From Cenococcum geophilum (lineage: Eukaryota), in the NCBI GenBank assembly GCA_050273025.1, contig CP158635.1:21514001-21578000 (forward strand): a DNA stretch of 64,000 nt. The letters run 5' to 3'. The translations under genes and the position numbers were made by a program. The notes under the pieces were generated by a model that saw only the letters and a list, made by a program, of their open reading frames with translations, ran no database searches and was not told where the DNA came from. Shown here one piece after another: positions 18,794 to 60,648 of the stretch; position 1 is the first letter of the stretch, and every line of letters starts with the position of its first letter.

Positions 18794-19011
18794 TATATAA
18801 TTATAGCACCTAGTATACGAACGCGTAAATACGCGTTCGTGCACTAACTACCTACATGCTAACTAATTAGGGGGGAGGCGCGTCAGTATATAGACCATAT
18901 AGTCTACCTTAATAGAATTGACAGTTACCATTATCCAAAAGAGCATATAATACTATATGTATTTCGTACCCCTGGATCTAACTCACTCGTGCTATTAAAT
19001 TAGTACGAACA
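18794..19011 (+). repeat. 3' LTR of GalEa-like copy 1
   Basis: Direct repeat of 6673-6890, ends GAACA, then TSD TATTC. Confidence 0.93.
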
Positions 19012-19248
19012 TATTCCTATATAACTTAACTACTCTTTATTTTATAGCTTAATTGGTTTTAGTGCCTTATATACTATTTTAACTAACCTATATATATCCT
19101 TTCTTAATAGTTATACTACTGCCGATATAAAGTTCGTAACACTATCCTTCTCCTCTTTATTTTTGTCCTTAAAGGTATCTCCTATCTCTAAGTTATTTAT
19201 TAGAGGTATAATATTCCCGTTTTAACTTAATAACCTTTATTATTTCTA

Positions 19249-19895
19249 ATACCTTTTATTAGATCCTTTATACCTAACCATTATAATTAGCTAGTAACTA
19301 TAATTCTTTTACTTAATAAGGTTATACCGTTCTATTTTTAATATGCGGAGAAAAAGTTAGTATATATTATAATCGCGGCTTTATCCGGTCGCTAACCTTT
19401 TTTATACACTAAGTGTACGTAAGTAAATATACAATTATCCTATAATGTTTAATCTGTCTTTAATACTAAGTATACGCGTTTTATTTTTTTTATTATAAAC
19501 GTCTAGTTCCTTATTTAATTTGTCTTAGGGTCCTATATATTAGAAGTAGTCAAAAAACTAAAGAGTAAACTATTACTAGCCCTTATTAAGGTCTAACGTT
19601 ACTTTAATAAAGTATCTTAGGCTCTAAAGGCTTAATTAACCTATCTTTTAAAGGTTTATAAGAAAGTACGCTTAAAGGAGTTATATTTTACTAAGTAAGG
19701 TTTAGCGGAACTTAAGGCTAAAAAGGCTAGAAAGGATTCTAATTAAGAAAAGGCGGAAATAGTTTATACGCCGGTAGTAGATCCTATAGATAATCTAGCT
19801 TATCTATCACCTTTAACTAATTTCTTTATCTTTAGCTCCTTCTTAATATTACCTAACTCGTTTTCTTCTAATACTCTTATACTTTTCCTATAGTA
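19249..19895 (+). pseudogene. Antisense accessory ORF of G1, Zn(II)2Cys6-like plus coiled coil (RIP-decayed; end approximate)
   Basis: Reverted reading VMPSCSRCAEKKLVC-x13-CxxC-x8-C; the fifth Cys (TGT) survives near 19413; homologous to 22955-23594 and 57838-58700. Confidence 0.6.
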
Positions 19896-20904
19896 TTCCT
19901 TAAGTTTTATAGTAGCTTTTAGGTAGTCTTATTATAGCCTACCTACTTAACTTTATACTAAGTTTTATTGTTAATGTCCTTATAACTAACAATCTTTAAA
20001 ATCTACTATTTATCTTCTTCTTATTCTTTATATATGTCTACTTTATAAACTAGTAGCTTTATATCTTTATATACTAGCTCTAGTATTGCGATATACTATA
20101 TAGGGTAAATTTTAATTTTTACTAGTAAGTTAAGTCTATATATAACTTTTAAAAATTTAACTACAATCCTAAATAGTTCTAGTTTACATAATCTAACCTT
20201 TTACTTAGTTATTAACTTGTAAATTTTTTATATAGTAGCTATACTTTACCCCCCTTTTTAAAATCTAGTCCCTGAAATCTCCTAATATTATAGTACTTTT
20301 TTATTCTCTTTTATACTAACTTTACTAATTTTATAAGGTCTTTATAAAGATTTATTAGTATATTAATTTTTTCCTTAACTATATTACTTATTTTCTTTAC
20401 TTATTATAGTAATAATAATATTCTAGGCTTATATCTATAATTCGCCCAAAATAGTAGTATCTTTATACCTTTCTATGATGTTGTATTATATATAAACTAT
20501 ATAACTAGCAGTAATAATACCTAATTAATGTAATATCTTAGGTACTACTCTAATATCTAATTTAGTTTCTCTATTTAATTATCTATCTATAGATAATACG
20601 CTATTAATATTACTGCGCAAATCCCTTATTCCGCTAAGAATACCTCCTAAAATACTGCTATAAATCTTAGATCTCTGTTTAATATAATCTTACTTAGTGC
20701 CTTATATCTTATAAACACTTCCTTAATATAGATTTTAGCTATATCTTCTACTAAGATTTCTTTTATATATGCTATAAAGATTCCTAATTCATTAACTGGT
20801 TTCTTATATCTTTATATTAAAAAGTTTAGGAGCTCTTGCTGCACCCGGCCCAAAAAGACCAAAACTAACTAAAAGAACCCTAAAAAATACCTAGAGAATC
20901 CCCC

Positions 20905-22421
20905 TAAGATACATACATTGCAGGGGAGGCATATATTAAGTGACGGTGGTTTATATTCGCGTGCGTCTACTAAAACTACGCCTAGCAATAGACCTCTATA
21001 ATAAAAACGGGCGAATACTATACTATAAAGTAGGAAGACCTCTATTAAAAAGGTATCTAATAAAATATAAAGCCTATTAGACGTGTCTAGTATCTATAGT
21101 TATAGGGAAGTAACTATTAGCTATAATAAACTAATATAGCTAGTAGAATGGCTCCGCTAGTTTAGTAAACCTTAGGCGCCCCTCTAGTAAACCCTTAATT
21201 AAATCCTCTAACGGCTAAGTAAAATTAAAAATAAATAAAATCCCTCCTTACCGGCGAACCGCACCTAGGCTATCATAGCTGCGCTTCTATAGTATAGGGT
21301 ACCTACCCCCCTAAAGATAATAACCGGGTATATAATTATAATATAACTAAATATAGAAAAAGTAAAGGGGCTTAGGGGATAATTAGAAATAGAAGTCCTT
21401 ATAAAGATTTATAAAGAGGTTTATAACGCTATTATAGTCCGATACCTTAGGAGCGAAGATATTAGAGTTACCCTAAGGGACTAATAGGTAAAGGAACAAG
21501 CCGTAAAAGTAGGGGATAGGCTAGGAAAATAAATTGGTATAAAAGTGCTCCGTAAAAACTACCTAGTTAAAGTCCTAGCGGTCCCCCTAAGCCTTAGGGT
21601 AGAAAAAGGACGCTAGGCGGATAATATAGCAACTATATATAAAATAGTAAAATAAATAGAACGCCTTATACTAGGACTTAAGATTACCTAAATCTAATAG
21701 CTTTAATAGGAAAATGTAAACTAAGTATATAATAAGAATAATAAAAGGATATAAGGGTTGCTAGAGACTTGCTAGGGAGACGCCGGTTAAATATATAGCT
21801 CCCTTATTATTAGTATATATACACTAAGGATGTAAAAACTCCTTATCTAAAAAGGTATTATTATAAATGGCCTTATATACGACGTAAGGCTCTATAACTA
21901 TAAACTCCGCCTAAAATAATGCTATTGCTATATATAATAGGGACACACCTAATCTATATACGCAATATAGGTGTGCTACGGCTACTATGCAGGCCCCTAT
22001 AATATAAGATACTACTTAAATTAAGACTAAATAAAATGCGTAAACTGCTACCAAAGTATATATAAGGCGTAGGAGAGAGAAGACTACATTAAATACAGAA
22101 GACGGAAGGTAAGGGCTTAATAGCTATAAGAATAACTGCACGCTAGGTTATATAAATGGAAATAATAGGTAATAAGCTAGGGGGGCGTAAGTGCCTTTCT
22201 AGCGTTTCCTACCTTTAATACCAGGGGGTTAGGCTAGCTATCCTAAGCCTTAACGGGCTAGAAGCGACACTATATAATATTACTAGACTATATAGGGATA
22301 TAAGGGTTATAGGGGATATAAGGGAGAGGACGCCCTATAGGAAGATCCTTATAAATAGCTATAGTAAGCTTAAGACTAGGATAATTAAAAATTAGACTTA
22401 ACGTAGTAAATATAGCATTTA
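20905..22421 (+). pseudogene. LINE ORF1 (gag-like), 5' part; continues at 30373-30512 and from 35951 (start approximate)
   Basis: Three Cys/His knuckles near 21920-22090 (QCY.C..WGH, CGY(C)AGP(H), KC.NC). Confidence 0.72.
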
Positions 22422-22846
22422 TATAACGGAACCTTGTAGCAAGAACTATAATAGGTCCTATTATTGGGCTAAGTGTGTAGGAAATACAAGTATAAAAGTC
22501 GATAAGTAATAACAACTAGTAGAGTAGTTGCCTAACAGATTAACTTTAATTATATTCTAAGAATTACTATAAAGAAGGAACTATCTAGGTAGGGACTAAG
22601 GGTCCTTAAATACATAACCATACTTCTATAAAATCCTTCTTATACGTAATATACGTCTTATATATAAGGTACATAAGTTCTTTTTATTTCTCTTGTTTAA
22701 CACGTAGCATATTATATAACCTTAGTTACCATTTCTCGTCATATAGTTCTATTAGCTCCATCCTAGACCATGCCTAAATTAACTAACTAGCTTCTTCCGT
22801 TTCTTCTCTAAGTAGTTATAATATTATACTTAAAGCGTCCGTAACA
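22422..22846 (-). repeat. 3' LTR of G2
   Basis: Direct repeat of 29943-30367, adjacent to the polypurine tract. Confidence 0.94.
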
Positions 22847-22954
22847 CCATCTCCCTCCTCTTTATCTTTGTCCTTAAAAATTTAAAACGTTTTTAAGTTA
22901 TTTATTAAAGGTATAATGTCCATCTAATTAATTTGGTTAATATTATTACTTATT

Positions 22955-23594
22955 ATACCTAAAGCAATTTCTTCTTTATACGCCCAACGTTGTGCTCGCA
23001 CTATTACTGTAATATTATCTCTTAGTGAGATTATACTATCCCTATGTTCTTGTTATTTAAAAGAGGGGTTAGTTTACGTTACATTAGCGAACCTATCTTT
23101 ATAACAACCGTCCTCTTATTTAAAGTATACTAAAGCAAATATTCGTTCGTCTTATAACATTCGCTCTACTTCTAATGCTAAATATACGCGGCCTATTACT
23201 CTTAATAGTCGTCTAGTTCCCTAATTAATTTATCTTAGGGTCTTATATTTAATCTACTGCTATACGGCTAGATAGTAAACTGCCTTAAGCCCTTACTAAG
23301 CTAGAACGTTCTTATAATACGGAATAAAAAGCCCTAGATACTTAAATTACGGCGTCTACTCGTTTACTTTATCTTAAGAAGGTTTACTCTAAGGAGTGGA
23401 AACTTATAGAATAAGGTTTATAGGAACTTAGTAATAAAAGAACGGATTCTCCCCTAATAGAGAAGGAAATAGATCTAAGTAGTTCAGTAACTACTCTTCT
23501 TAAGTCCCCCTTAAGTAACTTATTCTTTAGCGATTCTTCTTTATTAATATTACCTAACCTAATCTCTTCTAATACTCCTATACCTTTCTTATAG
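22955..23594 (+). pseudogene. Antisense accessory ORF of G2, Zn(II)2Cys6-like, predicted 55-nt intron at 23184-23238
   Basis: Reverted MPKAISS...EIMPSPCSRCSKEGLVC-x13-CSEC-x8-CDVRS..DAE/W then a helical region ending ELS. Intron (G)TACGC...CTAAT...TTAG restores the frame. Confidence 0.62.
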
Positions 23595-26500
23595 CGTTCT
23601 TTAAATTTTCTAATAGTTCCTAGGTAGTCTTATTATAGCCTATCTACTTAACCTCGTACTATATTTTATTATTAATATCCTTATAATTAACAATCTCTAA
23701 AACTTGCTATTTATCTTCTTCTTATCCTCTATATATGTCTGCTTTATAAACTAGTGGCTTAATATTCCCGTATACTAGATCTAGTATTACAATATACTAT
23801 ATAGGGTAGATCTTTATTTTAGCTAGTAGGTTTAACTTAAACGTAACCGGTAAAATTCTTTATATAATTTCAAAAGGTCCTAATCTAACGTGGTTTAACT
23901 TCTTACTTAGTTATTAACTCTTAAAATTTTTATATAGTAGCTACACTTTATCTCCCTCCTTAAAATCTAGTCCCTTAGATCTCTTAGCATTATAGTACCT
24001 TTTTATTCTCTTTTATACTTTCTTTACTAATTCTATAAGGTCTATATAAAGATTTATTAACGTCTTTATTCTTTCTTTGGCTATACTACTCGTTTTCTTT
24101 ACTTACTATAGTAATAATAATGTTCTTAGCTTATATCCGTAATTTGCCTTAAATGGTAATGTGCCTATTTCTTCTTAAGGTATTGTATTGTACGCAAACT
24201 ATATAACTAGTAATAGTAATACCTAATTATTCTATATATAATTAACATAATGCCTTAGATACTGTTCTAGCGTCTAATTTAATCTTTCTATTTAACCGTC
24301 TGTCTATAGATAATATACGGTGGAAGTTGCTACTTAAACTCCTTACTCTACTAAGAACACTTCCTAGAATACTACTATAAATCTTAGATCTCTATCCAAT
24401 ATAATTTTACTTAATGCTCTATATCTTACGAACACTTCTTTAATATAGATTCTAGCGACATCTTCCGCTAATATTTCTTCTATATATGCTATAAAGTATC
24501 CCTACTTTATAAGCTTATCTACTATTACTAAGATTGCGTTATAGTCTTATCCGGTAATAGAATATCTTAACTTTAGTAACTTAATAATAAAGTCCCATAA
24601 TATAACCTCCTATAGTTTCTCTAGTATTTTAATAGGTTGTAGCCCTCTATATAGCTTATACCTTAATAGTTTATTTCTTTAGTAATCTAGATACTCTTTT
24701 ATAACCTTCCTAGCTATCCTTTAGATTTTATTAATAATATACTCCTCCTAAAGTCTTAATACTAAGCCCGTGGCTCCATTATATCCTTAAGTCAATCCCC
24801 TATAGAATTTTTCTATAAATTGCTCCGCTATACTTCTTAGGATATACTTTACCTCTTAATTTTCGTATATATCCGTCTATGGATCTTCTAGCTATACTTC
24901 TAGAATTCTTTATGCCCAAAAGCTTTCTAGTATCTTGTAGACTTTCTCTAATTTATTATTCTCTTAAGTTACTATAATTTTTAGATAATTATACCTAATT
25001 AATCCATCTATATCTTTTCGCAGTAAAGCCCCTAATAGCTTCTCATCATTTTATAGTTTAGCCTTTTAACTTAGAGTATCTGCCTATGTGTTATCTATAC
25101 CCTTAGTATACTAAATCTTGAAATAGTATTCTATAAGCATCTCTGCCTATCTAACCTGTCTTTAGTTAAGTTCTTTCGTTATTAGGAATCCTATTAGGTT
25201 CTTATAATCCGTTTTAACTATAAATAGTTTCTTTATACCTTATAAAAATGCTCTCTATTTCTTTAGTACTATAACTATACCTAACAACTTCTTATTGTAA
25301 ATGTCATAGTTTAACTCTAGTAGTATTATCTTTCGACTATAATATACCACTAGGTGCTATCTATCTTAATGCCTTTATATAAAGTACGCCCCTAGTATAT
25401 AATCTAATACATCCGTCTTTATAACCGTCTCTAGTCCTAGTTAATAGATCTTAAGAACTGGCTCTTAGGTAAACAACTCTTTAACTTTCTTAAAAATTTC
25501 TCGCTATTCCTCTCCCTATACCTATAGTTCTTCTTTTTTCGTTAATTACGTAAATAGTTTAATGTTCTTTAACTATTACGCTATAAACCTTCTACAGTAA
25601 TTGCAAAACCCTAAAAACGATTTTAACTATATAACGTTCTTTAGTTCTTACTAATTTACTATAGCCTCGATCTTCTTTAGATCTATATTAAGTTAGCCTA
25701 GTTTAATAATAAATTTAATAAAATCGGTCTTCCTAGTAAAGAACTCGCATTTCTTAATTACTACTAGCATCTATTCTTTTTATAGTCTCTTTAAGACCTA
25801 TTTAATATATTCCCTATATTCTTCCTTAGTTATTAAGTAGATAATAATATCGTTAAGGTATACTATAACAAATTTATCTAAGTGTTCTCCTAACATATTA
25901 TTAATATACTTTTAGAATATTACTAGTATATTTATAAGCCCGAATTGTATAACCAATGGTTTATATAGTCCTTCCTTTAATCTAAAGGCTGCCTTCTATT
26001 TATCGCCTTCCTTAATCCTAATCTAATAGTACGCCTATCTCAGATCTATCTTTGTAAAGATTTACGCATTACCTATTCTATCTTAGATTTTGCTAATTAA
26101 GGGTAAAGGATACCTATTCTTCCTAGTAATGCTGTTTAACTGTCTATAGTCAATACACAGCCTTAGTTTACTATTTTTCTTTAGTACAAATAGTACTAGA
26201 TAACCCGCTAATAACTACGATGGTCTAATATATCCCTTTCGTAGGTTCTCCTAAATAAACTCTTTTAGTGCTCTACCTTCTTCTTTAATAAGCTTATAGA
26301 TTAGAAAGAACTTTAGACTTATTTCTGGTTCTAACTCTATTTTATAGTCCTATACTATATACTCTAATAGCTTTTCACTTTCCGGTGACTATAGTTTCTT
26401 ACTATACTTATAGTATCTCTTTAGTATATAACCTAAGCCTTACTCGGTTTCTTTATATATCGCTCTAACTTAGTACTATACCAACTTAGCTTATTATTAT

Positions 26501-29900: not shown

Positions 29901-29942
29901 TATCTAACTTCTTATATTAATACCATAACCAGGTAGTAATTA

Positions 29943-30367
29943 TATAACAGAACCTTATAGCAAGAACTACGATGGGTCCTGTTATTGGGCTAGGTGTATA
30001 GGAAATGCAAGTATAAAAGTTAACAAGTAATAATAACTAGTGGAGTAGTTGCCTAACAGATTAACTCTAATTATATTCTGAGAATTACTATAAAGAAGAA
30101 ACTATCTAGGTAGGGACTGAGGGTCCTTAAATACACAACCGTACTCCTATAAAATCCTTCTTATATATAATATACGTCTTATACATAAGGTACGTAAGTT
30201 CCTCTTATTCCTCTTATTTAATACGTAGCACATTATATAACCTCAGTTACCATTCCTCATCACATAGTTCTATCGGCTCCATCCTAGACCGTACCTAAAT
30301 CAACCAACTAGCTTCTTCCGTCTCTTCTCCAAGTAGTTATAATATTGTACTTAAAGCGTCCGTAACA
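29943..30367 (-). repeat. 5' LTR of G2
   Basis: Direct repeat of 22422-22846. Confidence 0.94.
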
Positions 30368-30569: not shown

Positions 30570-30770
30570 GTAATTGACATGTAATTTAACCAACTCGACA
30601 CGCAATTAACTAACTTGACACGCAATTGACCAACTTGACATGTAATTTGACTAACTCGACACGCAGTTAACCTACTTGACATGCAATTTAACTAACTCGA
30701 CACGCAGTTGACCTACTTGACATGCAATTTAACCAACTCGACACGCAGTTGACCTACTTAACATGCAATT
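30570..30770 (+). repeat. Subterminal ~20-21-bp tandem repeat (GACACGCAATTGACCAACTT-like); resumes at 33565-33637
   Basis: About 10 units before and 3-4 after the nested Tc1 element, partly as an alternating ~41-bp dimer. Confidence 0.9.
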
Positions 30771-30890
30771 TACAGTCAACCGCAAAAGATCGTTTACATC
30801 GCTTAAATTCGCGAACAGCCGGCATCGCGCCCCACCAAAATTTGTACGAGGTGTGATGTAACGCATTTAATCCACTACTTATTGCCTAAA

Positions 30891-33364: not shown

Positions 33365-33764
33365 AGAAAACACCACAGAAGGTCCTATATAATTATCCTA
33401 ATTAGGCTAGACTTAAGCTTTATTTTAAGCTACTTACGGCTGTTTGCTAATGGTTGCTAGGTCTTTAAATAGCTAGCATTGCACCTTATACAAATTTTGG
33501 TAGGGTGCGATGCCGGCTGTTCGCGAATTTAAGCGATGTAAACGATCTTTTGCGGTTGACTGTAACTAACTCGACACGCAGTTGACCTACTTGACATGCA
33601 ATTTAACTAACTCAATATGCAGTTAACCTACTTAACAACTTTAAAAGCTAACTGTATATTTCTTGACGTGCGATTAAGATAAAGTTATATGCTATATATT
33701 TAACTATTATATAATCTTATACAATCTTATACAATCTCATACAATCTTATAGTCTTATTACTTG

Positions 33765-53434: not shown

Positions 53435-53860
53435 TATTACGGACGCTTTAAGTACAATATTACGACTATTTAGAGAGGAGTTAAAAGAAGCTAGTTGGCT
53501 AATATAAGTACGGTCTAGGATAGAACCGATAGAGCTATATAACGAGGAATAGTAACTAAGGTTACGTAACGTGATCTATATAATCTGTAGGATCTATATA
53601 ATCCGTAATAGAGTAAATAGAGTATATATATATATTACGTATAAGAAGGATTTTATAGGAGTACGGTTATATATTTAAGGACCCTTAATCCCTACCTAGA
53701 TAGTTCCTTCCTTATAGTAATTCTTAGAATACAATTAGAGTTAATCTATTAGGCAACCACTCCACCAGTTATTATTACGTTGTTGACTTTAATTTGCATT
53801 ACCTATACACCTAGCCCAATAACGAGCCTATTGTAGTACTTGCTATAAGGTTCCGTTATA
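53435..53860 (+). mobile_element. Solo LTR of the G2 family, opposite orientation to host G1
   Basis: Reverse complement of the G2 LTR (TATTACGGACGC...GGTTCCGTTATA); TSD TTTAA at 53430-53434 and 53861-53865. Confidence 0.92.
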
Positions 53861-56160
53861 TTTAACCTAGTACTATATACCTTTTACGTTATTAAGTATT
53901 TCTAATATTAACCTAGCCTATAACCTAATTAATCTTTAGGTTATATTCTTATAACTAAGGTATACTTAATACTGCCTTATCCTATCTTAATAGTAGAATA
54001 TTAAAAGATATCTAGATTGGTCTTCCTTTAATAGTTATCTAAATTGGTCCTATTTTAAGGTTAATAATGCCTCCTCTATAGGCTATTAGATCTCCTAAAA
54101 TTATAACTAATAGGTAAGGGTGCTCCTTCTATTTATAAGGTAGTTCTATTCTTTTAACTGCTGTAGGTAAAATATGGTTCCTTATTACTCTACTATTTAT
54201 TAGCGCTTTAAACTACTAATTTTACTAATTAACTTATAGATTTAGGTATTATTCTTAAATTCCTTTAAGGGTCTAAGGCTTTATTACTAGCTCCCTTTAG
54301 TTCTATAAGCTTCTACTTTTCCTAACTATTAGCTATTAGATTCTATTTATACTTAGTTTACTTTTAGCTAATACCTAATTTACTTCTTTTCCTCTATATG
54401 CTATAGATACGTATTTTTTTAGATATTCCTACTACTATTATCCGTCTAAATATTTTTCCGTAAGAAATCTCCCTAGTTAAAGTATTAAGTTATCTAACTC
54501 CTATACTTTTACTAAATGCTAGCTAAGTATATACTTAATATTTCTATATTATTACTTATCTAGCGCCTAATATATCCTTATTAGGTACTTCCAATTTTTC
54601 TTTTTTAGGTTTTTGTATATATTGTATATATTATCTATATATATAATTTATAATAGCATATAATATATAGGGTGCTTTAGGTTAACTCTTAGCTTATCTT
54701 TATTTTTAAGTTTAAACCTCTATTTAGCTAGTTTAAATATTAGTTTATTACTTACTAGTACTAAGATCTATCTTTTATATCTCTAGCCCTTTAATTATTA
54801 TTCTAAAAATTTTAACGTTATAATTAATGTTTCTTTAATATAACTTATACGTCTTTCTATAATTGCTTAGTCTTAAATAACTCTTTTATTTAGCTATAGA
54901 TAAAAATCTTCCCATTTATTATTATATTACTGCCTATACTACTTTTAATATAACTCTATAAGCGTATACAATCTATCTATAAGAACGTATCTTATTATTG
55001 CTACGTTATAATAGCCTTTTATATACCGTTCTTTAAATCTAATTAGAACTCCTAGGTTCTCTTTTTACTCTAGTTCTTTAAGCTATTTTACTCTTAGCGT
55101 GCCTATTTTAGGCCTATTAGTCATTTTTTATATAAGCGCTCTATCCCTTAGTCTACTTAGTATCTTTAGTCTATAGTATCCTCTTTAATTCTATTACGCT
55201 TTAATTTATTTTCTAAATTCTTTCTAGTTTTCTTCTAGTTTGGGTCGGCCTATTAAATCCTCTAAATTCTTAAACTTTATAATTCTAGTGTTAATTGTTT
55301 AACTCTAAGCTCGCTTCTTTCTTAAGCTTTACTCCCGCCTTAGTCTATTTAGATTCTTTTAGTGTTTATTAATTAGCTTTTCTTACTACTTTATTTACCT
55401 AGCGGCCTAGCTCTTTAGCTATATCCTCTATTTCTTTAGGGATTAATACCTCCTTTAGGTTTAGGTTCTTTTACTATTTCTATAAAAGCTTTTTTTACGC
55501 TTTACTTATAGGGAATTTCCATTTTATACTTATTCGTTTATCTTTAAACCAAGCTACTACTCTACTCTATTAATTTTTGTCTATTATAAGTCGTTAAGTA
55601 TATCTTATTCTATTATAGGAGTCTTAAGTATCTTTATTTTATCTTAAGCATCTTAAGCCTTTAGCCTTTTGCCTTTATTAAGTGCTAAAGTAGCTTACTA
55701 TCTTACTTCTCTTATATTTTATAAAGTGATAGATATTATATCTAATAGAGTTTTAATCCCTATTGCTGATCCTTTCTTTTTAGTGGATTTAACCTCTACC
55801 TCTATTATTGCGTTTTTAAGGTTTATATGCTTCTAGTAAGCTACCTTTATTACCTTATTATTGCTACTAATAGTATAATTATTTTAATTCTTAGATTTTA
55901 TTGCTAAATAGAACTAGTACGCGAGAAACTTCTCCGCTAAGTACTAGCTTACTATACCGTCCTAGTCCTAATTTAGTTTATAGAGTTAATCTAGTTCTTT
56001 ATCTAACTCTTTTATACCTTAGAGTTTTCTTAACTTGGGCTTTTATAGCTAATAGCTTACGCTATACTTGGCGTCCTAATAAACTTAGTATATGTTATTA
56101 TAATAAAACGCGAAACTCTTAATTAAAAACTCCTTAGTTCCTTACAGTATATTATTGTCC

Positions 56161-56163
<3 letters not shown>

Positions 56164-56205
<42 letters not shown>
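56164..56205. repeat. (TA)n microsatellite, about 21 units, inside G1 gag
   Basis: Seen directly; the homologous G2 position (~28786-28798) has only about 6 units. Confidence 0.95.
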
Positions 56206-56209
<4 letters not shown>

Positions 56210-57309
56210 GCTAGTTTTATTCCCTTTACTATATAGTCACTCTAACTACCTTTATAGTCTTTAGCGAAATAACCCTATTTTCTATAGTTTATATAAGCCC
56301 CTTCCTTATTCTATTTTTCTTGCTATAAAGTCCGCCTAAACATTTTTTACTACTAAAATCTCTGGTTTAGCCTCTGCTTCTTAGACCTTTAATTACTTAA
56401 TCCTTATCCTCTAGGTTTCCATAGTCTTCTATTTTTATTTCCTTTAGTACCGCTTAGGTCTATTAGCTTTACGCTATACTATAGCCTAAATACTTACTGC
56501 TATATCTTCTTTATATATACCGGTCCTTACTACGTTCTATTTAACTTTTTACTTTAGTATAGCCGGTTATCTACTTTAATAGCCTACTTAATAAGCTCTT
56601 ATATGCTTAGGTCATCTATTAGTATTATAATTACCTAAACTTTAGCCTTTAGTCCCCTTCTATACTAAGCTATTAACGCCCCTTAGTTCTACTTAGTTTA
56701 CGCTACTAGTATCTAGAACTGCGTCATATAGTCTATTGCTAATCCTTTTTACGTAAGCTAATATATCTTTTCTTTAGCTATTACTATTAATTCCGGATCT
56801 CTATATATTTATATTAATCTATTAGTAAATCTATCCTAGCTTAAAAATATATACTATGCCTTTAAGTTAGTAGTTGCCAATCTATTAGCCTATATCTCTA
56901 TAATATAAGGTTTAAACTACTTTAGTAATCTACCTATTAAAAATAACTCTGCGTACGCAACCTAATCTAGAAACTATTTTAACTTCGTTCCCTTATACTA
57001 GATCTTTAATTTTATTTATATAAGGAATCCTTTTAGCTTATGCCTTTCTCCTAAGAATCTTTTAATTAATAGTATCTTAATCTTTTCTCTCTTTATATCT
57101 TATAGTTGCTAAAGTAGTACCTAATTATTAGCATTATTTTGCTCTATAATACTCCTAAGCTAGTTTATTATAACTACTACTAAGTTATTATTATATATGT
57201 TAGTATCTCCTCCTAATCCAAAAGTAGTTATTACTATAGATAGCGTTATAGTTACTAACTTAGGTAGTATATTGCTTAACTTCCTTTACTATAACCTTAG
57301 TAGTAAATA

Positions 57310-57730
57310 TATAATAGAGCCTTATAGGAAATACCACGGTGGACTTATTAATAGGCTAGGTATATAGGTAAATAAGAAGTTAATAACGTAATAATAACTG
57401 GTAGAGTAGTTGCCTAATAGGTTAACTCTAATTATATTCTAAGATTTACTACAAAGAAGAGAACTATCTAGGTAGGGACTGTAGTCCTTTAAATATATAA
57501 TACTGCGCCTAAAAAATGTACTAAGTATATTAGTACGTTAGTACGTTAGTACGTTACGTTCCTATATTCCTACGTTTCTATATTTTAAACTTATAACGTA
57601 ACTAACTATATAACTTGGCTACCCTTTATCCTATAGTTTAACTAGTTTTAGCACCTCCTATACTTCTATTACTAGTCCATTTATATCTCTTTTTAATAGT
57701 ACTACTACTACTAATATAAGGTCCGTAATA
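57310..57730 (-). repeat. LTR shared between G1 (as 5' LTR) and G3 (as 3' LTR)
   Basis: Primer-site/gag leader lies on its left, PPT CTATCCCCCTCCTC on its right; matches 6579-6672 + 19017-19141. Confidence 0.88.
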
Positions 57731-57837
57731 CTATCCCCCTCCTCTTTATCTTATTCTTAAAGATATTTCCTATCTCTAAGTTGTCTATTAGAGGTATAGC
57801 ATTCCCATCTTTAATTTAATAACCTTTATTATTCCTA

Positions 57838-58700
57838 ATGCCTCCTATTAGATCCTTTACGTCTAATTACTACAATTAGCTAGTAATATTTATTCTTTCT
57901 TTTAGTACAGTTATACCGTCCTGTTCTTATTATGCGGAGAAGAAGTTAGTATATATACTAAGTATACGTAAGCAAATATTTAATTATCCTATAATATTTA
58001 ATCCGTTTCTAACGCTAAATATATATATCTTATTAATCTTTATAACTGTCTAGTTCCTTATTTAATTTATCTTAGGGTCTTATATATTAGTAGCAGCTAA
58101 AAGACTAAAGAGTAAGCTGGCTAAGGTCCTTATTAAAGTTTAATATTATTTTAATAAGGCATTTTTAGGCTCCAAAAGCTTAACTAAATGCTTATACTTA
58201 TCTAAGCCGTCTAGTAAAGGTTTATAAAAAGGTACGCTTAAAAGAGTTACGTTTTATTAAATAAGGTCTCTCTAAGCTTAAGGCTAAAGAGGCTAAAAAG
58301 GATTCTAATTAAGATAAGGTAGAAACAACTAATATACCGGCGGTAGATCCCTTAGATAATCCGGCTCGTTTATTACTGTTGGTATCACCCGGGGGGTACT
58401 GCAATTGCAATATAAGGTAACTAGTTCTTGGTTTATTCGTGTTCTTTTTTTTGTCGTCTACTAAAAGAGAAAGAAAGGGGTAGTAAAGGTCGGGCTATCT
58501 ATTGGGCCGTAGGCAGTTAGGTGACCTGCGCTACGCATATAGCCCCTACCGCATACGCTCTACGCCATTTATCTACTAACAATATTTATAACTTCTACTC
58601 GTACAGACAATTACCTTTAACTAATCCTTTTATTTTTAGCTCCTTCTTAATATTACCTAACCCTTTTTCTTTTAATACTCCTGTACCTTTTTTATAGCGA
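57838..58700 (+). pseudogene. Antisense accessory ORF of G3, with an internal deletion and a solo-LTR insertion
   Basis: Retains an intact ATG (57838) MPPIRS... and the first Cys codon in PSCS; homologous to the G1 and G2 copies. Confidence 0.58.
58377..58609. mobile_element. Solo LTR (233 bp) of a family not otherwise seen in the window
   Basis: TGTTGG...CAGACA with TSD ATTAC at 58372-58376 and 58610-58614; absent from the homologous G1 position (~19805). Confidence 0.88.
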
Positions 58701-60377
58701 TTTTTAAGTTTTATAGTAGTTTTTAGGTAGTCTTATTATAGCCTATTTACTTAACCTTATACTATATTTTATTATTAACGTTCTTATAACTAATAATCTT
58801 TAAAACTTACTATTTTTTTTCTTACCCTCTATACATATCTACTTTATAAATTAGTGGCTTAATATTCCTATATACTGGCTCTAGTATTATAATATACTAT
58901 ATAGAGGGTAGATCTTTATTTTGGCTAGTAGGTTTAACTTAAATATAACCGGTAAAATCCTCTATATAATTTTAAAAGGTTTTAGCCTAACATAGTCTAA
59001 CTTCTTACTTAGTTATTAGCTCTTAAAATTTTTATATAATAGCTATATTTTATCTCCCTCCTTAAGATCTGGTCCCTTAAATGTCTTAGCATTATAGTAC
59101 CTTTTTATCTTTTTTTATACCGTTTTCGCTAATTCCATAAAGTTTATATAAATATTTATTAGTATATTTATCCTTTCTTTAGCTATACTACTTATTTTTT
59201 TTAATTTATTATAGTAACAACGATATTCTTAGCTTATATTTGTAATTTCCCCTAAATAGTAATACACCTATTCCTTTTTATAGTATTATATTATATATAA
59301 ACTATATAACTAGTAATAATAATACCTAATTATTCTATACGTAATTAATATAATATTTTAGATATTGTTTTAGTGTTTAATTTAATCTTTCTATCTAACC
59401 GTCTATTTGTAGGTAATGCGCTATTAATATTACTGCGTAAACCCCTTATTCCGCTAAAAAAAAATTTAAAAAACTGCTATAAATCTTAGATCTCTATCCA
59501 ATATAATTTTACTTAGTGCTCCATATCTTACAAATATTTCCTTAATATAAATTCTACTAACATCTTCTACAAAGATTTCTTTTATACATGCTATAAAGTA
59601 GCCCTATTTAGCTAACTTATCTACTATTATAAGGATTATATCGTGCTCCTATCCGGTAATAGGATTTTTTAACTTTAGTAACTTAACGATAAAGTCCTAT
59701 AATATAACCTCCTATAGTATTTTTAGTATTTTAATAGGTTGTAGCCCTCTATATGGCTTATACCTTATTAGTTTATTTCTTTAGCAATCTAAATACTCTT
59801 TTATTACTTTTCTAGTAATGCCTTAGATTCTATTAATAATATATTTCTCCTAAAGTCTTAATACTAAGCCTATTACTCCGTTATGTCCTTAGGTTATTCT
59901 CTTATAGAAATCTTCTATAAAATGCTCTGCGATGCTCCTTAGGATATACTTTACTTCTTGGTTTTCGTATATATTTATTTATAGATCTTTTAGCTATACT
60001 TTTAAAATTCTTTATACCTAAAAGCTTTCCGGTGTCTTATAGACTCTTCTTAGTTTATTATTCTTTTAAGTTACTACTAGTTTAGGGTAATTATATCTAA
60101 TTAATCTATCCGTGTCTCTATGTAGTATTGCTTCTAATAGTTTCTTATTATTTTATAGTTTAGCTTTTCTACTTAACGCGTCTACCCTTACGTTTTTAGT
60201 TCCTTTAGTATATTAAATCTTAAAATGGTATTCTATAAGCATCTCTACCTATTTAACTTACCTTTAATTATGTTCTTTTATTATTAGAAACCCCGTTAGG
60301 TTCTTATAGTCCGTTTTAACTATAAATAGTTTCTCTACGCCTTATAAGAATGCTCTCTATTTTTTAAGTACTATAAC

Positions 60378-60648
60378 TGTTCGTACTAACTTAATAGCAC
60401 GAGTGAGTCAGATCCAGGGGCACGAAATACGTGTAGTATCGTATGCTCTTTTGGATGATGGTGACTGTCGATTGTATGAAGCAGACTACGTGGTCTATAT
60501 ACTGATGCACCTCCCCCCTAATTAGTTAGTGCTTCATAAGTGCACCAGACGCGTAAGCGAGTGGTTGGTGCACTGAACGCGTAAACGCGTACCTGGTGTA
60601 CCGAACGCGTAAGCACGCGGTTGGTACAACAGGTGCTGTAATTATACA
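60378..60648 (-). repeat. 3' LTR (271 bp) of the third GalEa-like element
   Basis: Reverse complement of the 218-bp LTR plus extra ACGCGTAA-containing units. Confidence 0.9.

Follow-up and report, generated by a model that had tools for sequence, protein, structure and literature searches.

A gene on the strand opposite gag-pol, lying between pol and the 3′ LTR, is mentioned for the fungal gypsy element Boty/BcGypsy1, where it is called brtn (PMC8365987, PMC7264820). In the mentions of it in later papers, brtn was reported in 2011 from Boty-like gypsy elements of Botrytis and Sclerotinia (PMC8365987, PMC7264820, PMC4227169). Antisense ORFs between pol and the 3′ LTR are also listed for the plant gypsy elements Grande1, RIRE2, Retand and PvRetro13 (PMC7264820). 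An antisense gene in this position has precedents in a small number of fungal and plant elements. To our knowledge, few LTR retrotransposons carry accessory genes, and no function is known for these. The first description of brtn is reportedly that of Zhao et al. in 2011 (Virology 417:248).

The locus described here, 22955-23594 of a Cenococcum geophilum sequence, has the same layout. It is read as a dead accessory gene, mutated by repeat-induced point mutation (RIP), of a fungal chromovirus lineage, running antisense to gag-pol in the interval that separates pol from the polypurine tract (PPT), and we give this reading a probability of roughly 0.8.

Element G1 and the Spacer between pol and the PPT

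The window, which is the whole 64-kb stretch of DNA that was analyzed, is a nest of fungal repeats ruined by RIP and is AT-rich throughout, its GC content being 0.24-0.44 per kb and its TA/AT ratio 1.2-2.1. Element G1 lies in it on the - strand, with its 3′ LTR at 22413-22846 and the partner 5′ LTR at 29934-30367, and the two LTRs, found by self-BLAST, are 434 bp long and 89.4% identical. Directly inside the 3′ LTR, a pyrimidine run of the + strand at 22850-22876 reads as the PPT of the element, and this tract is conserved in G1 and in two other copies in the window, G2 and G3. The gag-pol frame of G1 begins at 29931 and extends on the - strand down to 23560, full of RIP stops. In it, Pfam finds RVT_1 (E=2.9e-19) and RT_RNaseH (E=2e-17) over threshold, and SH3_Tf2-1 falls just under the cut-off (25.9 vs 30 bits). 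The chromodomain-like end of pol lies near 23590-23560. Pfam did not detect the Chromo domain in G1 itself, a copy too damaged by RIP, and found it at the gathering score of 25.1 in two of three relatives tested (L014, 26.2 bits; L003, 25.2 bits). LTRs, the order RT-RNaseH-integrase and a chromodomain at the C-terminus of pol, the last of these taken from L014 and L003, make the element a chromovirus.

The stretch 22955-23594 occupies the spacer from the end of the chromodomain to the PPT. An earlier note, made from the letters of this DNA, had put this spacer at about 700 bp in all three copies; it measures ~715 bp from pol to the PPT in G1, and self-comparison finds homologous spacers in G3 (~19140-19893) and in G2 (~57740-58697).

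Two other arrangements were seen in the window. Within 53437-60392, an LTR-like stretch at ~57308-57740 seems common to two G2-type internal regions (53884-57517 and 57740-60392), which suggests a tandem array of elements. Repeats of ~75-105 bp, 85-95% identical and partly inverted, stand at 30571-30853, just outside the 5′ LTR of G1, and recur 3 kb further on, at 33482-33637.

Three Dead Copies and Their Relatives

In G1 the antisense gene runs on the + strand. Exon 1 (22955-23183) starts with ATA in the place of the ATG of its relatives, encodes a basic N-terminal stretch and a cluster of six cysteine positions, and has 1 stop in 76 codons. It is followed by an intron of 55 nt (23184-23238) with an AT donor, the RIP form of GT, a CTAAT branch-like motif and an AG acceptor. 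Exon 2 (23239-23594) encodes a long helix and then a disordered tail; it contains 6 internal stops in 117 codons and ends with TAG at 23592-23594. The copy in G3, also on the + strand, consists of exon 1 at 19249-19471, an intron of 57 nt at 19472-19528, and exon 2 at 19529-19893. The copy in G2 (57838-58697, + strand) keeps its ATG at 57838 and is damaged: exon 1 has lost 40 bp, exon 2 has gained 239 bp at 58372-58610, and a further insertion adds 1 nt. All seven exon indels between G1 and G3 are multiples of three (3, 3, 18, 12, 6, 12, and 3 nt), and the two copies otherwise differ in length only by 1 nt upstream of the ATG and by 2 nt within the intron. G1, G2 and G3 are all non-functional copies. 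As to the 239-bp insertion of G2, its GC content is higher (0.42), and no other copy of it occurs in the window or in 80 related loci.

Relatives are numerous. A profile made from the three exon 1 translations of the window, with stops written as X, matched 215 proteins among 230 candidates, nearly all of which begin with MPPIRS... or MPKA... at the proposed start, and a full HMMER scan of 1.84 billion representatives matched 264 cluster representatives. An exon 2 profile matched 177 proteins. At the DNA level, a scan of metagenome contigs gave at least 565 relatives, of which 80 loci (L001-L080) were fetched and used; two of them, L022 and L072, are 86% identical to the G1 spacer. The relatives are unannotated ORFs from metagenomes or assemblies, each mutated by RIP in its own way. 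Cluster annotation of 16 proteins gave 'hypothetical protein' for P0318 and no name for the other 15, and none of the database matches examined has a name beyond this generic one. Three relatives (P0185, P0259, and P0386) have internal deletions that join the cysteine cluster to the helix in one open frame; P0185 misses ~52 nt around the intron.

The Six Cysteines

In the window, the six positions are mostly occupied by RIP-type codons. G1 reads TGT at 23045, TAT at 23054, TAC at 23075, and TAT at 23117, 23126 and 23153, and G3 reads TAT, TAT, TAT, TAC, TGT and TAT at positions 1-6, with the TGT of Cys5 at 19414. G2 keeps TGT for Cys1 at 57922. These three are the only cysteine codons that survive. 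The earlier note had listed the ATG at 57838 and Cys1 of G2, both of which are present, together with Cys1 in G3 and Cys5 in G1, which are not; in our numbering the survivors are Cys1 in G1 and G2 and Cys5 in G3.

RIP converts TG to TA and never the reverse, and a codon position that is TGY in some copies and TAY in others was therefore ancestrally Cys. The natural copies are of exactly this kind. Among the 120 proteins listed by the exon 1 profile, 116 show the spacing C-x2-C-x6-C-x13-C-x2-C-x8-C in its C/Y form, with Cys at positions 1-6 in 42, 42, 1, 9, 71 and 46 of them. When the six positions were left free, 78 of 83 DNA sources matched the anchor, and TGY stands at the six positions in 32, 47, 7, 23, 58 and 35 of these 78 copies; every other codon there is TAY, save one AAT and one CGT. 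The third position is Cys in 16 of 90 members of a wider representative set of proteins. All six positions are TGY together in the loci L003, L014 and L033, and all six cysteines are present in the database proteins P0157 and P0172. In an alignment of 61 copies, no exon 1 column besides these six consists of C and Y alone, and columns in which R, C, Y and H are mixed derive from Arg. Each of the six cysteines, which had at first been reconstructed by reverting TA, thus occurs in nature, and in these loci and proteins they occur together.

A Six-Cysteine Module Followed by a Long Helix

The encoded protein has ~195 residues, with a basic N-terminus, the six-cysteine cluster, directly after it a helix of ~78 residues, and a disordered tail. 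The helical segment behind the cluster, proposed in the earlier note, is borne out by AlphaFold: for exon 2 of P0274, with 122 sequences, a single helix is predicted for residues 3-80 at a pLDDT of ~98, beginning at the exon junction and followed by a disordered tail. A Lys as third residue after Cys2 is conserved (51 of 61 copies, with E in the other 10), as is a Pro three residues before Cys4. Hydrophobic stretches precede the cluster and lie between Cys3 and Cys4.

Zinc clusters of the Zn(II)2Cys6 type follow the formula CX2CX6CX5-12CX2CX6-8C. Four intervals of the present module fit it, and the middle loop, with 13 residues, is one residue beyond the range. The membership in the GAL4 family suggested on this basis was not confirmed. 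None of 150 natural proteins reached the gathering score of 21 bits for Pfam Zn_clus (PF00172). Two of them gave weak matches (P0072, 14.4 bits; P0188, 13.6 bits), in different registers and cluster halves, and such matches were no commoner than those to noise families, e.g., Hus1 and SPC12. P0157 and P0172, with all six cysteines, had no PF00172 match, nor had the raw translations of the window, as expected with Cys turned into Tyr. A profile search of the PDB with 60 natural exon 1 proteins gave 0 matches, and AlphaFold with 68 sequences left the cysteine region of P0172 at a pLDDT below 50. Look-alikes were also sought in the ESM Atlas; the best, with a score of 0.79, was an unrelated DUF and was discarded.

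With the gene taken as real, its six cysteines may form another metal-binding or disulfide module, for instance a zinc-ribbon-like pair of CxxC...CxxC knuckles with two extra cysteines, which would act on RNA, Gag or a membrane and not as a DNA-binding regulator of the GAL4 type. That Zn_clus is never significant and aligns to different halves of the cluster in its two weak matches, that even the complete six-cysteine proteins lack a Zn_clus match, that the PDB yielded no sequence relative, that the Atlas gave nothing usable, and that hydrophobic stretches precede and interrupt the cluster all argue for this explanation. However, the spacing departs from the GAL4 formula only in the 13-residue loop, the conserved Lys and Pro stand where they do after Cys2 and before Cys4, the long helix follows the cluster directly, as in zinc-cluster dimers, and the family is fungal. 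A module of another kind has to be reckoned with as a serious possibility, at somewhat less than even odds. Judged from sequence, the protein is a six-cysteine module with GAL4-like spacing that probably binds metal; the zinc-cluster label and a role as regulator are plausible.

Reading Frame and Selection

The proposed frame is preserved across the family. In 61 copies, exon 1 has a length of 1 mod 3 in 60 and exon 2 a length of 2 mod 3 in 49; the start codon is ATG in 21 and ATA in 40, and the TAG stop is present in 50. The proposed frame of exon 1 has on average 1.74 stops, against 4.3-9.3 in the other frames, and that of exon 2 has 7.3, against 10.6-16.7.

RIP yields transitions only, and selection was therefore followed through purine/pyrimidine (R/Y) variability per column. 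In exon 1, this variability peaks at the proposed third codon position (0.213 vs 0.076, p=2e-7). In the first part of exon 2 (23239-23440, here exon 2a), the maximum lies at third positions of the exon 2 frame (0.288 vs 0.128, p=1e-8). The phase of exon 2a is shifted by one base from that of exon 1, and the switch falls within windows 23146-23280, where the intron lies. The 12 least mutated of the 61 copies, chosen by GC content and compared in pairs that are not independent, have a transversion-only dN/dS of 0.31 in exon 1 and 0.51 in exon 2a, with 0.31 in the pol chromodomain as control and 1.1-4.1 in most other frames. These patterns show that the ancestors of the present copies were under purifying selection in exactly the proposed frames.

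The frames of the - strand that share third positions with the proposed ones also show rather low dN/dS, at 0.55 for exon 1 and 0.57 for exon 2a, and for this reason the call of the strand rests on the stops, the ATG, the splice signals and P0274, a relative that lacks the intron. The selection signal might otherwise belong to the - strand, with pol running beyond its chromodomain and across all of the spacer, and the + frame as a by-product. Indeed, the pol frame is nearly open through the spacer in a script-computed deRIP consensus, indels are multiples of three even in the supposed intron, and pol is the constrained frame in 23442-23591, where dN/dS is 0.50 in the - pol frame and 0.92 in the + frame. 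However, maximal variability changes phase by one base on passing the intron, and in 23239-23440 the pol phase has p=0.999, so that an extension of pol through this part is rejected. Moreover, the - frames contain 2-5 times more stops in exon 1, and it is the + strand to which the start codon, the splice signals and P0274 belong. A pol extension is very unlikely as the source of the signal. The tail of the antisense gene (~23441-23594) and the tail of pol with the end of its chromodomain appear to overlap on opposite strands.

The Intron

A single short GT-AG intron separates the two exons of the gene. Of 77 natural copies, 18 have GT as donor and 59 have AT, and AT is the RIP product of a GT that follows a T; the GT donor, which the earlier note could only reconstruct, is hence a natural one. 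In the least mutated copies the donor is GTGTGT or GTATGT and the acceptor YAG, with a CTAAT or CTAAG motif ~17 nt upstream of the acceptor. Even these copies have stops within the intron in both exon frames. In G1 the intron splits a TGG codon as T|GG. The intronless form is represented by P0274, a protein of 128 aa from a 921-nt contig of RNA or DNA origin, which reads ...VSDAE-W-SRVQSEAEKLEG... (VSDAE-W-SRVQS at the junction). Exon 1 sequence there passes through the split Trp codon straight into exon 2, and exactly the intron is missing; of 391 proteins examined, no other reads across the junction in this way. The proposed 55-nt intron at 23184-23238 is thus upheld by the T|GG junction, the switch of phase, the splice signals and P0274, and the antisense coding gene as a whole by the substitution pattern together with the conserved ATG, the stop, the splice signals and the same protein.

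Intron lengths fall into classes of 55 nt (35 copies), 61 nt (14), 127 nt (3), 130 nt (6) and 133 nt (2), and are 1 mod 3 in 60 of 61 copies, the exception being the 57 nt of G3; nothing would require such a regularity of a free intron. In the 130-nt class, an upstream acceptor was considered and rejected, since the least mutated copies have TGG in place of that TAG.

Reads gave the following picture. The one true RNA run, searched against 19000-24100 at 85% likeness, yielded just 87 reads, a thin cover and mostly less than 90% alike, and none with a joint at 23184-23238. In three runs guessed to be RNA, contigs of paralogues bridge the spacer without a clean skip of 55 nt. Over 22988-23657, the contigs of the runs X22-X24, guessed to be RNA, are 718-757 nt long, have a depth of 8-30 and bridge a paralogous spacer, with 266 unlike letters where G1 has 288.

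Conservation within the spacer is highest in the last 30 nt of the intron and the first bases of exon 2. A retrotransposon RNA or DNA element acting in cis, or regulation by an antisense RNA and not by a protein, would be conserved in such a way, but non-coding sequence would not be expected to show codon periodicity or, in defined frames, a dN/dS far below 1, and the exon indels are in frame, so that this explanation is highly improbable.

The cysteine pattern alone is weak evidence, because its relaxed [C/Y] form turns up seven times in a six-frame reading of the 64 kb, two of these occurrences being G1 and G3 and five lying at unrelated places. That chance made it, RIP rendering TAT and TAC common and free reversion of TA building cysteines anywhere, is in keeping with these five places and with the three surviving codons, but is refuted by natural copies that carry the cysteines themselves, by codon periodicity and by dN/dS, and its probability is negligible.

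A Possible Role of the Antisense Gene

As the intron is antisense to the genomic RNA, it would not be spliced from the template and would be inherited at each retrotransposition. The gene may be transcribed from a promoter that reads inwards from the 3′ LTR. Its product would be a metal-binding, dimeric factor that binds nucleic acid, built like a minimal GAL4 DNA-binding region with the cysteine cluster followed by a pairing helix, and may serve the expression or replication of the element itself. In its fullest form, this proposal would have a widespread fungal chromovirus lineage encode a miniature GAL4-like dimeric zinc-cluster protein, made from a spliced antisense mRNA that starts in the 3′ LTR and binding to the LTR or to host chromatin in order to control transcription or evade silencing; in this full form it is doubtful.

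The accessory gene itself is a conserved antisense gene recoverable from DNA ruined by RIP, under selection like that on pol (0.31 in exon 1 and 0.51 in exon 2a, vs 0.31) and spread over hundreds of copies and several subfamilies. Its six-cysteine module and long helix make it a candidate for a nucleic-acid-binding regulator carried by a chromovirus. If the GAL4-like reading were true, it would be a transposon-borne transcription factor of a fungal-specific class. For the window, three relics are now correctly read, none of them functional.

Comparison with Known Systems

With the Zn(II)2Cys6 proteins, the encoded protein shares the spacing of the six cysteines outside the middle loop, basic residues after Cys2, the Pro before Cys4 and a helix after the cluster. 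It differs from them in that PF00172 stays below threshold, in that the middle loop of 13 residues is hydrophobic, in its size of only ~195 residues, and in lacking the middle domain of fungal transcription factors. Among the papers listed by a literature search, none links a zinc-cluster gene with a retrotransposon.

The layout of the gene has a precedent, and the newness claimed for it in the earlier note is weakened by brtn of the Boty-like elements, as far as the mentions of brtn go. Compared by these descriptions only, both genes belong to fungal gypsy elements that bear a chromodomain, lie on the strand opposite gag-pol and stand between pol and the 3′ LTR. The antisense ORFs of plants share the position and the orientation, are conserved within families and have no known function, according to the account of them in PMC7264820; by the same description they differ in belonging to another kingdom and to non-chromovirus lineages. 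Like genes of the aORF-3R/brtn type, the G1 gene runs against gag-pol in the interval from pol to the 3′ LTR, and it is conserved across copies and subfamilies, as seen in dN/dS, codon periodicity and in-frame indels.
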